A stretch of 64,000 nt of DNA, from sequence record OL631478.1. One strand, written 5' to 3'. Source of the DNA: Escherichia phage ECML-1. A model generated the notes under the pieces. It worked only from the letters and a program-made list of their open reading frames with translations. It made no database searches and was not told the origin of the DNA. Below, piece by piece: positions 11,259 to 25,027 of the stretch (the stretch's first letter is position 1; each line of letters begins with the position of its first letter). Both the position numbers and the translations under genes were made by a program.

Positions 11259-19277
<8,019 letters not shown>

Positions 19278-19279
19278 TA

Positions 19280-20467
19280 ATGGCAGTAGGTGAAATTCAA
19301 ATTAGTGCCTTGCCTCAAGCAGCCTTACCAATTGACCTTAGTGATATCTTCCATCTTAAGCAGGGTATTGAGGATAAGAGATGTACTCTTGAGCAATTAC
19401 TTGCTCCACACTCAAGCCTAAGAAATAACCCTCATGGTGTGACTAAAACACAAATTGGTTTAGATAACGTTATTAATGCTCTTCAGTTAGTTGCTGCAAA
19501 TAACTTATCAGACGTTACTAATGTAGCTCAGGCAAGAGCAAATCTACAGATTATGTCTTCAGAAGAGGTTAATAATCTTGTTCAACAGCATATTCAGGAC
19601 AAGAGCAACCCACATAATACAACTAAGGCACAGGTAGGATTGAGTAATGTTCAGAACTGGACAACATCGAATCTTTATAACGAAGATGCAGACAAGTACG
19701 CTACAGCAAGAGCAGTAAATAACTTGTACAAGGCTGTTCAGGCTTCCTATCCAGTAGGTACTATCCATCTTTCCATGAACTCTGCAAACCCTTCTACATA
19801 TTTAATTTGTGGAGGAACTTGGGAGTTAGTTTCAAAAGGTAGAGCATTGGTTGGTTATGACTCTGATACAAGACCAGCAGGCTCTGTATTTGGTGCTTCA
19901 ACTGTCACTTTGTCAGTTAATAACATGCCACAACACTCACACTCTGTGTCTCTTAGTGGTGGTGGTCACACTCATAATGCAACTGTGTCAATTTCAGCTT
20001 TTGATTATGGAAATAAGACTACCAACTCTTTTGACTATGGAACAAAGACCACTAACACGACTGGTAACCACAACCATGTTGGCAGTGGGTCAACAAGTGC
20101 TGCTGGTGCTCACAACCACAGATTGACCTATGAATCAGGTGGTGGTTTATCTGAAAGACCTGCAATGGTTTGGTCTTCAAGAAATGACCAATCATGGTAC
20201 TCAGCAGATGCTGTCTGTGAAGTCGCTGGTGCTCACAGCCACTCTTTCAGTGTTACCACTAACACGACTGGTAACCACAACCATACGGTTGGTATTGGTG
20301 CTCACAGCCACACAGTTGGTATTGGTTCACATACACACAATGGTACTGTAACAGTTTCTTCTTCTGAACATACGCATAGCGGGAACACTAATAGCGTTGG
20401 TGGTGGACAAGCTTTCAACATTGAGCAGCCATCCTTTGTACTGTATGTATGGCAGAGAACAGCTTAA
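19280..20467 (+). CDS. Tail fiber protein with His-rich (HxH) C-terminal module
   Basis: Repeated GNHNH / AHSHTVGIG motifs; C-terminal ...QPSFVLYVWQRTA shared with downstream fiber. Confidence 0.7.
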   Translation: MAVGEIQISALPQAALPIDLSDIFHLKQGIEDKRCTLEQLLAPHSSLRNNPHGVTKTQIGLDNVINALQLVAANNLSDVTNVAQARANLQIMSSEEVNNLVQQHIQDKSNPHNTTKAQVGLSNVQNWTTSNLYNEDADKYATARAVNNLYKAVQASYPVGTIHLSMNSANPSTYLICGGTWELVSKGRALVGYDSDTRPAGSVFGASTVTLSVNNMPQHSHSVSLSGGGHTHNATVSISAFDYGNKTTNSFDYGTKTTNTTGNHNHVGSGSTSAAGAHNHRLTYESGGGLSERPAMVWSSRNDQSWYSADAVCEVAGAHSHSFSVTTNTTGNHNHTVGIGAHSHTVGIGSHTHNGTVTVSSSEHTHSGNTNSVGGGQAFNIEQPSFVLYVWQRTA

Positions 20468-20477
20468 TTTCTTTACA

Positions 20478-20497
20478 GGGGCTTTATAGCCCCTTTT
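20478..20497 (+). terminator. Rho-independent terminator between the two tail fiber genes
   Basis: GGGGCT-TTAT-AGCCCC hairpin followed by TTTT. Confidence 0.55.
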
Positions 20498-20513
20498 AAG
20501 AGGAAAATTTATA

Positions 20514-22898
20514 ATGGCAGATTACAAGTTGAGTGAATTAAACTCAATCGATACAATCCGTTCAGACGACCTTCTTCATGTCAGGGTTAAAAAGAGACCT
20601 GAAATGCTGGGTGATGAAGACCGTCGAATGACCTATCAAGACTTCTTAGCATCTTTTAAACTTGAAAGATTTGTTCAGATTGCTGGTAGCACTATGGCGG
20701 GTGACTTAGGGATTGTTAAGTTACTTTATGGTGGTAAGGTAGTCTTTGACCCAACAGGCTCTTCTGAGATTACTATTGGGGATGTTTTAAAGTCTTTTAA
20801 AATCAATGCAAATGGCCTTAAACTAACTATTGCAGACGCTTCAAGGTCGGCAACTGTTTATCATACTCTGAATAAACCAAGCCCTAATGAACTTGGGATG
20901 AGAACTAATGAAGAGAATGATGCAAGATATGCAAGGCTTGCTGTGAATAATACCTTTAGAGGTACTCAAGCTATCCTCTCTGACAATGAAGCACTCATTA
21001 TTAAAAATATCACTCAAGGAGCACCACTCTATCTTCGTGGTCAAGATGCAGATGGCACTAACAGATGGTATCTAGGTAATGATAATAGGGGCACACATAA
21101 CCTTGTATTGAAGAATGTAAAAACTGACGTTTCAATTGCTATTTTAGAAAATTTGGTGACAGTCAATAGAACTCTTCAAATTGCTGGTCAAGTTCAGCCT
21201 TCAAGTTTTGCTAACTTAGATGCTAGATACTTTACTCAGACAGCAGCTAATCAGAGATTTGCGCAGTTAGCTGGCAATAATACATTTAGTGGTTCTAATA
21301 TTTTCACTAATTTTGTTATTAAGAAGAATGCTAATGCTATTACTATTCAAAATGTAGATACAACTACGGCTTTGTATATCCAAGCAAGGAAATCAGATGG
21401 AACTAATAAGTGGTACATTGGTAATGATGGTGATGAAAACATTGTAAACATCTATAACTATTTAGCAAAAACACAAATCTCATTAGGTAACACCATTACC
21501 ATGAGCAGAACAGTCCAAATTGGTGGTCAAGTTCAACCTTCTGATTGGTCTAACATTGATTCTCGATACATTCCAGCAGCTACTTTGAGTAATCTTGCTA
21601 AGATTAATGTGGCTAACACTTTTACAAATGTGCAGACTATTGTATCTAACAATGAAGGTCTAGTGTTGAGGAACTTAACACAGGGGCAGCCACAATATAT
21701 CCGTGGTGTTGATACTGCGAATGTATCTAGGTGGTGGGTAGGTGTAGGTGGCACAAATTCTACTGATGTAGCCTTAAACAACAGCTACTCTGGGACTCAA
21801 ATTACTCTTATGCCTTCAGCGATTAAGGCTAATAAGAATCTAACCATCACTGGTCAAGTTCAACCTTCTGATTGGTCTAACTTAGATGCTAGATATTTTG
21901 TTAAAACTCAGTTATTAAACCAATCTTTAATGACTGTCTCTGTAGATAACCTTGAAAACCCTTCAGGTTTTAATCTTGGATATTCAGGTTTTGTCAGAAA
22001 CAATGCGGTTACTAGTGGACTGAAAGAATTGGCAATTCATGTTGCGCACTCTAATAAGACTGCTGCACATGCAAGAGGAATCTCTTTTGTGTATGGCTCA
22101 AATGGACTGGCAACATTTACCTATGCCTATGACAAAAATGGTGACTATGCTGGAGAAGCACAGATTTATACAACTGATTTTAAACCAACCCCTTCAGATA
22201 TTGGTGCATACACTAAAGCTGAAACTGACCAGAAGATTGCACAGGCAGTAAGTGACTCTACAGACCTTAATAAAATCTATCCAGTAGGTATTGTAACGTG
22301 GTTTAACAGTAATGTTGACCCTAATACAGCACTTCCTGGGTTAACTTGGACGTACCTGAACAATGGTGTTGGTAGAACTATCAGAATTGCAGCAGCAAAC
22401 GGTTCAGATGTTGCTACAACTGGTGGTTCAGATTCTGTGACGTTAGCTGTTGGGAACTTACCATCACATACCCATAGTTTCTCTGCTACCACTTCATCTT
22501 TTGATTATGGTACGAAGGGAACTAACAGTACTGGTGGTCATTCTCACTCTGTAAGTGGTACAACAAGTGCTGCTGGCAACCACGCTCACCACTTAGGTCT
22601 GTTATTAGTTAACGGTGGTGATGCTTTGTACGGGTATACAACCGTTGGTAACAGCCTGCCTAGAACACTTGACTGGCTTGACAGAAGAGACAATAAATTC
22701 CCTAACACTAACACAACTGGTAACCATACACATACATGGTCTGGTACTACAAGCGGTGCTGGTGACCATTCCCACTCTGTAGGTATTGGTGCTCATAGCC
22801 ACACAGTTAGTGGTAATACTGGTAGTACAGGTTCTGGTTCAGCATTTAGTGTTACTAACCAGTTCTACAAATTAATGGCTTGGGTGAGAACTGCTTAA
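20514..22898 (+). CDS. Long tail fiber protein with internal tandem triplication and His-rich C-terminal module
   Basis: 794 aa; three ~108 aa repeats each ending GQVQPS(D/S)(W/F)(S/A)N(L/I)D(A/S)RY; C-terminus GHSHSVSG...AHSHTVSG...[11 protein letters not shown] parallels the upstream fiber. Confidence 0.75.
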
Positions 22899-22977: not shown

Positions 22978-23172
22978 ATGCCTACAATCCTAGCAATTCT
23001 TCTAAAAAATCTAGGTAGCTTCTTCTGGAAACTCATTTTATCCCTTCTAAGTGAATACATGATTGAGAAAGTGTTCTTTAGGCTTGCAAGATACCTTGCG
23101 AGTAAAACAGACACACCTATTGATGATGAGTTCGTAGATAACTTAGAAAAAGCTTTTAAGGGGGAGAAATAA
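22978..23172 (+). CDS. Small hydrophobic protein (possible holin-like)
   Basis: 64 aa, hydrophobic N-terminal half, GAGGTGA RBS 5 nt upstream of ATG. Confidence 0.4.
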   Translation: MPTILAILLKNLGSFFWKLILSLLSEYMIEKVFFRLARYLASKTDTPIDDEFVDNLEKAFKGEK

Positions 23173-23544
23173 ATGAAGTGGCTAGAGGAAGCTTTTAAAA
23201 ATAATATTGGTGCAATTGTAGTTGGTATTTTTAGTGTTATTGGGATGTATACCACCATGCAAGTCTCGGATGGTAAACAAGAAGTGTCTATCACAACAAA
23301 GTTACAGCAGTTAGATAATTATTCCAAAAGTAATTATTCAGCTATTCGTGATTTACAGTCTGATATGAGGCTGCTTCAGCTAGGGATGGAGAACCAGAAA
23401 GTTCAGTTAGAGAATGTTAAGGGTGAGAACGCAAAACTTACTAAAACCCTTGATAAATTCTCTGATAGTGTGAACAATCTGGCTCAATCAGTATCAGCCC
23501 TCCAAGCTATTACTGAAAAGAACACAAAGAGTACTGAAAAGTAA
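23173..23544 (+). CDS. Membrane-anchored coiled-coil protein (possible lysis/holin-associated)
   Basis: 123 aa; N-terminal TM segment IGAIVVGIFSVIGMY followed by heptad-rich periplasmic-like region. Confidence 0.4.
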   Translation: MKWLEEAFKNNIGAIVVGIFSVIGMYTTMQVSDGKQEVSITTKLQQLDNYSKSNYSAIRDLQSDMRLLQLGMENQKVQLENVKGENAKLTKTLDKFSDSVNNLAQSVSALQAITEKNTKSTEK

Positions 23545-23580: not shown

Positions 23581-24480
23581 TTATTTACCTACTGACAAAG
23601 GTGCTTCAATCTTTCCTGCATGTTTGTAGTTGTTGATGCCACCAATAAAGTCACTTGCAGTAAGATGTTTTAAGTCACTTAAGGTGTTAAGTTGTACACC
23701 AATCTCAAAAGTAGGTGCATGGAACTCTTCATTGTTCATCAGTTCATAAACCTGCTTCATATGGTTCTGGTAAATCTGAGTATCCCCAAAGACACCTATC
23801 AAGTATCGTGGAGTGTATCCAGTCATCTTACAAAGAACTTCCAGAATAAAACCATAAGACGCAATATTAAATGGAAGTCCTAAAAAGGTGTCTACAGAAC
23901 GTTGATACCATTGTAAATCAACTTCACCTTCGTTAGTGATATAAATCTGAAACAGAACATGACAAGGTGCTAAAGCCATCGAGTTGGCTGCAATATCTGC
24001 TGCATTCCAAGCATTAACAAGCATGTAACGGTCTGTGATATCACCTTTCATCTTCGTTACTAAGGTCTCTAACTGGTCTACAACACAACCATTATGACCT
24101 TCAAAGTTTCTCCACTGAACCCCGTAGATTCTCCCACCTGCATCTTCTAACCAGTCTTGCTCAGAAGAATAGTTAGAGCTTAACCAACGTTTAAAATCAT
24201 CTGACCAGATAGTCCAACGTTCTCCATCATTTTCACCCCAAGTGCGATAACGGAGTTCACCAAGTTTATTCTCACCATTCAGGAACCATAAAGCTTCCCC
24301 AATAACTTGCCGCGTAAACACCTGTTTAGAGGTTAAGAGTGGGAAACCAGTTCTCATATCAAAACGAAACTGTGGTGGAGCAAATGCAGAGATAACATCT
24401 CCAGTTCGTGTAGTACGCAGTTCACCAACGGATAAAACATGGTTCAGGATATTTTTGTAACTCAAATCAGCTTGTGACAT
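23581..24480 (-). CDS. thyA: Thymidylate synthase (ThyA family)
   Basis: MALAPCH active-site Cys motif, YQRSVDTFLGLPFNIASY (Asp and Asn specificity residues retained), N-terminal RTTRTGD; DHFR encoded immediately downstream. Confidence 0.85.
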   Translation of the reverse strand: MSQADLSYKNILNHVLSVGELRTTRTGDVISAFAPPQFRFDMRTGFPLLTSKQVFTRQVIGEALWFLNGENKLGELRYRTWGENDGERWTIWSDDFKRWLSSNYSSEQDWLEDAGGRIYGVQWRNFEGHNGCVVDQLETLVTKMKGDITDRYMLVNAWNAADIAANSMALAPCHVLFQIYITNEGEVDLQWYQRSVDTFLGLPFNIASYGFILEVLCKMTGYTPRYLIGVFGDTQIYQNHMKQVYELMNNEEFHAPTFEIGVQLNTLSDLKHLTASDFIGGINNYKHAGKIEAPLSVGK

Positions 24481-24481
24481 A

Positions 24482-25027
24482 TCAAAAGTGTCCTTTTACT
24501 TGTGGAACATAAATTTCAAAAGTTGCTTTACCATCCTCTGATGGTTTTGACTGTACCTTTGTAAATACACGGTTATCATACAGCTTCTCAAAGAAGTCTT
24601 CAAAAGGTAAATGTACAGTGACCTCTTCAGTAACTTTATGGAAAACAGTATGGAACACTACATCAGCATATGGTAAAGCATTGACAAGGACACCTGCACC
24701 ACCAATTACAAAGACATCTTCATCAATAGAGCTATCAAGATACTTCAAAAATGCTCCAAATGACTCTTTACTGGCTTTAGCATACATTACATCATCTTTG
24801 CCAAAGTCTATGCCTAAGTATGGTACAGAATTTGTTAAGATGAGGTTTGCACGTTCTGGTAAAGGCTTACTCCCCAGAGTCTTGAAAGTCTCATTACCCA
24901 TCACTACTAAGTTATTTTTAGTGAGTCTCTTAAACTCTTGCATGTCCTGTTTATGTCGAGGCCACGGCATACCAGTTGGAGTACCAAACTCACCATTTTC
25001 ACCACTTGCAAAGATTAATTTAATCAT
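24482..25027 (-). CDS. frd: Dihydrofolate reductase
   Basis: N-terminal MIKLIFASGENGEFG...MPW...LVVMGNETFKTLG...LPERANLILT pattern matching DHFR family. Confidence 0.8.
   Translation of the reverse strand: MIKLIFASGENGEFGTPTGMPWPRHKQDMQEFKRLTKNNLVVMGNETFKTLGSKPLPERANLILTNSVPYLGIDFGKDDVMYAKASKESFGAFLKYLDSSIDEDVFVIGGAGVLVNALPYADVVFHTVFHKVTEEVTVHLPFEDFFEKLYDNRVFTKVQSKPSEDGKATFEIYVPQVKGHF

Follow-up and report, generated by a model that had tools for sequence, protein, structure and literature searches.

What the two adjacent genes at positions 19,280 to 22,898 of Escherichia phage ECML-1 encode, and whether their repeated and paralogous parts serve recombination and thereby host-range switching, is the question raised by this locus, which was analysed within a stretch of 64,000 nucleotides (nt) of sequence record OL631478.1 (the window). 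A sequence-only reading had described two tail-fibre genes with a similar histidine-rich C-terminal module, the longer of which carried a tandem triplication. Our analysis indicated that the two genes very probably encode the pair of fibres with which a Felix O1-like myophage binds its receptors, with tips of the bacteriophage T4 gp37 type and with recombining cassettes.

Both genes, co-directional in the open reading frame (ORF) listing, were placed by comparison with relatives. Across all of its 3619 nt the region was 97.5% identical to that of Felixounavirus LF82P9, at nearly equal genome coordinates, and the 263 phage records matching the 3.6-kb region were mostly Felixounavirus. Upstream ORFs of 489, 285 and 100 amino acids (aa) gave Baseplate_J and baseplate PHROG matches, and the series of 489, 285, 100, 395 and 794 aa followed the order of wedge 2, wedge 1, long tail fibre (LTF) platform, short tail fibre (STF) and LTF in phage Bas63. 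In the cryo-electron microscopy study of Bas63 (PMC12609058), wedge 2 measures 489 aa, wedge 1 285 aa and the LTF platform 100 aa, and the platform gene is followed by the short fibre gp26 (430 Å) and then by the long fibre gp27 (630 Å). Synteny and equal lengths of the neighbours therefore identified the two as fibre genes, short and long, of a Felix O1-like phage. Judged by its sequence, the window phage is a Felixounavirus with fibre genes of the Bas63 gp26/gp27 and Felix O1 gp76/gp77 type; the earlier assignment to tail fibres was thus borne out by PHROG and Pfam matches, nucleotide identity, synteny and protein lengths alike. The two genes, the platform gene and the modules of the LTF were as follows:

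18975 to 19277, plus strand: product of 100 aa corresponding to the LTF platform of Bas63 (gp25), the long-fibre attachment point; full-length match to phrog_4141; as in Bas63, flanked by wedge 1 (285 aa) and the STF
19280 to 20467, plus strand: STF gene, 395 aa, Bas63 gp26 / Felix O1 gp76 type; phrog_2097, E 4e-136; Pfam Gp10_C, E 8.7e-19; PDB 2XGF, E 5.5e-26
20514 to 22898, plus strand: LTF gene, 794 aa, Bas63 gp27 / Felix O1 gp77 type; phrog_4277 matched from end to end, E 0; three stretches of Pfam gp37_trimer, E 1.9e-59; PDB 2XGF, E 2.4e-21
20514 to 20918, plus strand: conserved N-terminus of the LTF (baseplate-binding region, aa 1-51) and first shaft domain R0 (aa 52-135)
20919 to 21218, plus strand: repeat R1, aa 136-235; identity classes among relatives 96-100%, 77-80% and 30-48%
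21219 to 21557, plus strand: repeat R2, aa 236-348, with an exact 30-mer at its end (21525-21554)
21558 to 21884, plus strand: repeat R3, aa 349-457, with the exact 30-mer at its end (21852-21881)
21885 to 22268, plus strand: hypervariable domain R4 of the distal shaft, aa 458-585 (24-100% identity across relatives); weak Pfam gp37_C match at 544-583
22269 to 22463, plus strand: N-terminal part of the LTF collar, aa 586-650; Pfam Gp10_C at 586-693, 24.3 bits (cutoff 27); 94-100% kept in close relatives
22464 to 22817, plus strand: needle and head of the LTF, aa 651-768, with ascending HxH motifs at H652, H676 and H690 (the last as HAHH), the head (aa 693-736) and descending motifs at H738, H752 and H761
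22488 to 22807, plus strand: segment whose DNA is also found in gp37 of T4-like phages; 92-95% identical to that of sutha, AV122 and SHBML-50-1 across 306-320 nt
22818 to 22895, plus strand: C-terminal collar strand of the LTF, end WVRTA

A module-by-module identity table of 24 related LTFs and 27 STFs showed that the N-terminus, the collars and the inter-repeat junctions were conserved across relatives (82-100% for LTF aa 1-51, and 71-100% for R0). R1, R2, R3, R4 and the heads occurred as discrete alleles, in identity classes of about 95-100% and about 25-55% and at times one of about 65-80%, and these alleles assorted independently; the STF head was either 95-100% or 8-22% identical to its counterparts. 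Three loci illustrate this pattern:

L001 against the window: R1 47%, R2 96%, R3 95%
L008 against the window: R1 79%, R2 98%, R3 43%
L023 against the window: R1 98%, R2 51%, R3 45%

Differences between close relatives were likewise confined to blocks. The window and LF82P9, its closest relative, were 99-100% identical save at 22340-22700, and divergence from LF110P4 was restricted to 20900-21709, with the last mismatch at 21677 marking a distal breakpoint about 120-150 nt beyond the 30-mer at 21525-21554. Additionally, some cassettes had changed slot: R1 of locus L011 corresponded to R3 of locus L021 (290 nt, 94% identical), and a second cluster of cassettes was found 35 times in slot 1 and five times in slot 3, while R2 never moved. 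Junctions J1 and J3 were the most alike, and in-register exact runs between slots reached 50 nt. In L023, the STF and the LTF of one and the same phage had a common needle and head (91% at nucleotide level), the head sequence being identical. The window's own two tips were only about 73% identical, in short His-box stretches, which argues against a recent exchange between its STF and LTF.

Host interaction may involve more than the tips. Substitutions selected at LTF residues 497 and 534 during experimental evolution (PMC6669636) fall within R4, a location that hints at a role of the shaft domains in host interaction as well. A more far-reaching proposal is that R1 to R4 are combinatorial secondary surface-glycan-binding modules shuffled via the junctions, that host range is set by several cassettes, and that the head is portable, folding in Felixounavirus and T4-like fibres alike, possibly without a gp38-type chaperone; we consider this conceivable and rather unlikely.

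The cassette alleles might, on the other hand, result from ancient vertical divergence under strong diversifying selection, without any recombination. Hypervariable receptor-binding regions can diverge fast, and the Bas63 study treats shaft variability as plain sequence variation between species (PMC12609058). However, adjacent modules conflict on the nearest relative in the three loci listed above, backbone genes differ by a few percent only, and one cassette can be found in different slots, on both fibres of one phage and even in another phage family, so that purely vertical descent seems very improbable in comparison with cassette exchange.

The triplication was examined at protein and at DNA level. 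Three consecutive LTF units of 100, 113 and 109 aa (R1 to R3), whose borders were set by anchoring on the D(A/S)RY and GQVQPS motifs, displayed pairwise identities of 49, 39 and 34% and local alignment scores 15 to 34 standard deviations above those of shuffles. Pfam family PF20744 (gp37_trimer) matched in the three stretches with 198 bits (cutoff 21.7), and a profile built from ten diverse repeat units matched the pyramid domain of T7 gp17 (4A0T, 4A0U and 7BOZ; E 3e-6). An AlphaFold2 monomer model of LTF aa 121-479 showed a five-strand body per repeat with a predicted local distance difference test score (pLDDT) of 70-89 and low-confidence junctions; its likeness to the C-terminal structure of T7 gp17 was modest, as can be explained by the use of a monomer model. 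At DNA level, only the junction motif followed by L/I-D-A/S-R-Y was strongly conserved: the exact 30-mer GGTCAAGTTCAACCTTCTGATTGGTCTAAC was found at 21525 and 21852, and a diverged third copy lay within 21165-21233. Tandem Repeats Finder did not report the period of about 330 nt, the repeats being too diverged. Three consecutive repeats thus do exist, as the sequence-only reading had claimed, but the near-identity that it saw in their DNA is limited to the junction motif, and the segments that it placed at about 21529 and 21853 start at 21525 and 21852.

No detectable relation of R0 and R4 to R1-R3 was found by profile searches or alignment. These two domains were weakly similar to each other (z score 6.1), and both contained a C-terminal KP(S/T)P motif region. 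As a consequence, the five beta-helix repeat domains described for the Bas63 LTF shaft (PMC12609058) appear in the window LTF as three clear sequence repeats and two other domains. Among the T4-like phages, gp37 of SHBML-50-1 (locus L030, 793-3870) contains one PF20744 gp37_trimer domain, at aa 685-759, just before the collar.

A recent and unstable tandem duplication, with copy number varying fibre length and host range, would account for the exact 30-mer at the ends of R2 and R3, and the repeated junctions could allow unequal crossing-over. Such instability is nevertheless most unlikely, since the repeats are only 34-49% identical and every one of the 145 LTFs compared, 120 of them database proteins and the others from 25 loci, had exactly three at constant positions. 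The Bas63 authors also find the repeat number to be without variation (PMC12609058). Moreover, differences in LTF length mapped to the tip and to R4 and not to the repeat count. As far as these sequences tell, the triplication is an old and fixed structural feature, not a variable-number repeat, and the constant number points to cassette replacement rather than to expansion or contraction. The suggestion that repeats and paralogous modules are substrates for recombination can be maintained for cassette exchange, as revealed by the comparison of fibres across relatives; it does not hold for repeat expansion or contraction, nor for recent exchange between the paralogous tips of the window.

In two relatives, L018 (4813-7156) and L020 (4818-7188), the LTF was split into two ORFs of 453 and 311 aa and of 541 and 259 aa, respectively, for which frameshifts or sequencing errors could be the cause. 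The LTF of Salmonella phage Si3 is flagged as probably incomplete in the Bas63 study (PMC12609058).

Exchange beyond the genus was suggested by the head of the LTF. In the 233 nt of positions 22512-22744, the window differed at only 4 sites from gp37 of SHBML-50-1, a T4-like phage (98.3% identity), and for the 135-nt head the best match in the whole phage collection was again SHBML-50-1 (98.5%), above any Felixounavirus. The head was carried by 35 records, of which about 29 were from Felixounavirus and six were entries from the five T4-like phages SHBML-50-1, AV122, sutha, BYEP01 and N2; identities were graded between 81 and 98.5%. Its amino acid sequence was identical in AV122 and differed by two substitutions in sutha. 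Beyond the segment of about 320 nt, the window and T4-like genes were unrelated at DNA level, and the collars were of different types, PF07484 Collar in the T4-like phages and Gp10_C (PF21939) in the window. The heads of the window and LF110P4 fell in with those of the T4-like phages, and the remaining Felixounavirus heads formed a second group, an arrangement that favours neither direction of transfer. For the STF tip, no counterpart above 80% nucleotide identity was found in T4-like phages, His-box stretches excepted. In the literature on His-box recombination and on fibre exchange between Felixounavirus and Tequatrovirus, a description of the near-identical head was not found.

The LTF head segment (22568-22702) has a G+C content of 47%, compared with 39% in the window and in the whole LTF gene. 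The T4-like genomes carrying the head are not G+C-rich either, and composition therefore points to neither family as the source.

Mixed-phage assemblies or contamination could mimic such a near-identity, as Felixounavirus and Tequatrovirus are often isolated together, from one sewage source and with shared E. coli or Shigella hosts. An artefact is hardly credible, however, when the head occurs in five separately deposited T4-like phages and about 29 Felixounavirus records, lies in frame between collars typical of each lineage, and shows graded identities instead of 100%.

The modules of the STF, which complete the comparison of the two tips, were as follows:

19739 to 19930, plus strand: N-terminal part of the STF collar, aa 154-217
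19931 to 20119, plus strand: ascending needle strand with four HxH motifs (H219, H230, H264 and H278); FDYGxKTTN unit present twice, with a tandem repeat of 30 nt at 19998-20056
20120 to 20230, plus strand: STF head, aa 281-317, hypervariable presumed receptor-contact loop; aligns with the T4 gp37 head
20231 to 20383, plus strand: descending needle strand with five HxH motifs (H319, H333, H342, H351 and H364); 27-nt tandem repeats at 20269-20339
20384 to 20464, plus strand: C-terminal collar strand of the STF, end WQRTA; aligns with the ...IVRLA end of T4 gp37

The C-terminal modules of STF and LTF aligned over about 260 residues with 34% identity (blastp with composition-based statistics, E 2e-27). 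The His-rich peptides quoted in the sequence-only reading were recovered from both translations (GNHNHVGSG, AHSHTVGIG and the end WQRTA in the STF, the end WVRTA in the LTF), and its notion of a similar module on both fibres is confirmed by this alignment. Both tips also matched PDB 2XGF, the tip of T4 gp37, at STF aa 146-367 and LTF aa 647-774. Their HxH motifs were in register with those of 2XGF, and the SFDYGTK and GIGAH(S/T)HTV boxes were nearly identical to those of T4. Ascending and descending motifs numbered 4 and 5 in the STF (9 in total) and 3 and 3 in the LTF (6 in total), compared with 3 and 4 in T4 gp37 (7 in total, with one iron ion per motif, according to the Bas63 study, PMC12609058). 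The region preceding the needle was a collar of the Gp10_C type, above the Pfam cutoff in the STF and just below it in the LTF, and T4 gp10 chains matched as well; the last 25 residues or so aligned with the C-terminal collar strand of T4 gp37, so that in both fibres the collar is split by the needle. The metal-coordinating tip fold proposed earlier is consistent with this homology, HxH motifs aligning with a structure that holds seven iron ions, and can be retained as probable. Likeness to T4 gp37 was already noted in 2010 for Felix O1 gp76 and gp77 (PMC3185647) and in 2015 for VpaE1 gp74 and gp75 (PMC4690856). A purely compositional resemblance without a common fold, conceivable for two tips rich in H, G, S and T with short tandem units, can safely be dismissed because the likeness persists under composition-based statistics and extends to collar parts that are not His-rich, and because both tips match 2XGF (E 1e-21 to 1e-26) with their motifs in register.

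The number of HxH motifs was not constant: it ranged from 5 to 10 among 75 STF homologues, nine being the commonest count. Tandem Repeats Finder reported units of 27-30 nt only, all in the STF needle, and relatives held 0-4 FDYG units; given these two ranges, the needle seems to change in length by whole rungs, through gain or loss of 9-10 residues at a time. The 30-nt unit (19998-20056) encodes FDYGxKTTNx twice and the 27-nt unit (20269-20339) encodes G-x-H-x-H-T-V-G-I 2 to 2.6 times, both in frame. In the STF shaft, a motif NPHxxTKxQ(I/V)GL(D/S)NV occurs twice, at aa 50 and aa 110 (19403-19516 and 19583-19696).

Taken together, the fibres may be pictured as follows. Each would consist of three identical chains whose conserved N-termini hold it to the baseplate, with a tip in which the collar is interrupted by a long hairpin forming a six-stranded needle in the trimer. 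By analogy with T4, where six histidines per site hold iron octahedrally, the HxH motifs of the three chains would face the axis and each coordinate one metal ion, thereby stiffening the needle, with nine predicted metal sites in the STF and six in the LTF. The small head at the hairpin turn would contact the receptor, presumably lipopolysaccharide in the case of Felixounavirus. The LTF shaft would consist of R1-R3, of the gp37_trimer / T7 gp17 pyramid type, flanked by R0 and R4, its triplication being ancient and fixed. Shaft domains and heads would then be cassettes between conserved junctions, namely, in the shaft, GQVQPS...N-L-D-A-R-Y and, in the tip, the His boxes SFDYGTK and GIGAHSHTV. 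Through homologous recombination there, cassettes may be swapped from phage to phage, between slot 1 and slot 3, from one fibre to the other and across the divide between Felixounavirus and T4-like phages, and host range may be altered as a result.

Several points weigh against this scheme. The sequences directly show the homologies, the architecture, the fixed repeat number and the mosaic patterns, and from these we infer the trimeric state, the metal binding, the receptor contact of each head and also recombination at the junctions as the mechanism. Breakpoints were read off identity profiles and not obtained from a formal recombination test. The AlphaFold2 monomer predictions were of moderate confidence only (mean pLDDT of 62 and 67, with less than 50 in the head), and the monomer tip model gave no match to 2XGF. 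Furthermore, the T4-like phages with the same head have a gp37 of about 1025-1067 aa with a gp38-type assembly protein encoded directly downstream, and a tblastn search for SHBML-50-1 gp38 in the 64-kb window had a best match of only E 0.3 (the window covers the genome except for about 22 kb).

Directly 3' of the LTF, two small ORFs of 64 aa (22978-23172) and 123 aa (23173-23544) matched only functionally unassigned PHROGs (phrog_402 and phrog_4038). By eye, both had hydrophobic N-terminal stretches, and the 123-aa product a coiled-coil-like tail. Genes for thymidylate synthase (Pfam E 5e-73) and for dihydrofolate reductase (E 4.4e-22) were found on the minus strand at 23581-25027, directly downstream and convergent with the fibre genes, which fits the nucleotide-metabolism genes reported for Felix O1.

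Felix O1-type phages serve in Salmonella typing and are candidates for biocontrol and therapy, and their host range is set by both fibres. The junctions, discrete alleles, interchangeable slots 1 and 3 and T4-like head mapped here represent practical splice points for host-range engineering. A further prediction from the map is that the long fibres of the window phage and of phages such as SHBML-50-1 or AV122 would recognise the same receptor.

Among known systems, gp26 and gp27 of Bas63 are the closest. As described in the corresponding study (PMC12609058), Bas63 resembles the window in genus, gene order, neighbour lengths and the presence of two fibres with collar-needle-head HxH tips; its LTF also has six HxH motifs, an extra histidine by the head and repeated beta-helix shaft domains, and tip and shaft are variable across the genus. 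Differences concern the STF, for which seven HxH motifs are reported instead of the nine of the window, and the shaft, where only three of the five domains can be recognised as sequence repeats in the window. The architecture of the fibre pair is thus already known for Felixounavirus (PMC12609058, PMC3185647 and PMC4690856).

The T4 gp37 tip (PDB 2XGF, Bartual et al. 2010) likewise combines a collar, a six-stranded needle with HxH motifs on both strands and a head at the turn, but its collar is PF07484 rather than Gp10_C (PF21939), its HxH motifs number seven as against nine and six, and its head loops differ. The T4 fibre is an assembly of gp34, gp35, gp36 and gp37, whereas the window fibre is a single polypeptide. 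No gp38 homologue was found in the 64-kb window. In gp37 of SHBML-50-1, AV122 and sutha, the DNA of needle and head is 92-98% identical to positions 22488-22807 of the window. The pyramid domain of T7 gp17 (PDB 4A0T, PF20744) is present in one copy, and in the window LTF in three copies in tandem.

His-box or motif-mediated adhesin swapping was reportedly described by Tetart et al. in 1998 for T-even distal fibres, in which short conserved motifs flank variable adhesin segments. The segment exchanged here ends in such motifs too; unlike in that system, the exchange crosses phage families and includes shaft cassettes. Swapping between the R1 and R3 slots, the same head on both fibres and the near-identical T4-like head were not found in the cited Felixounavirus literature, including the accessible part of the Bas63 study. 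These observations are cases of the well-known mosaicism of tail fibres and not a new kind of system.

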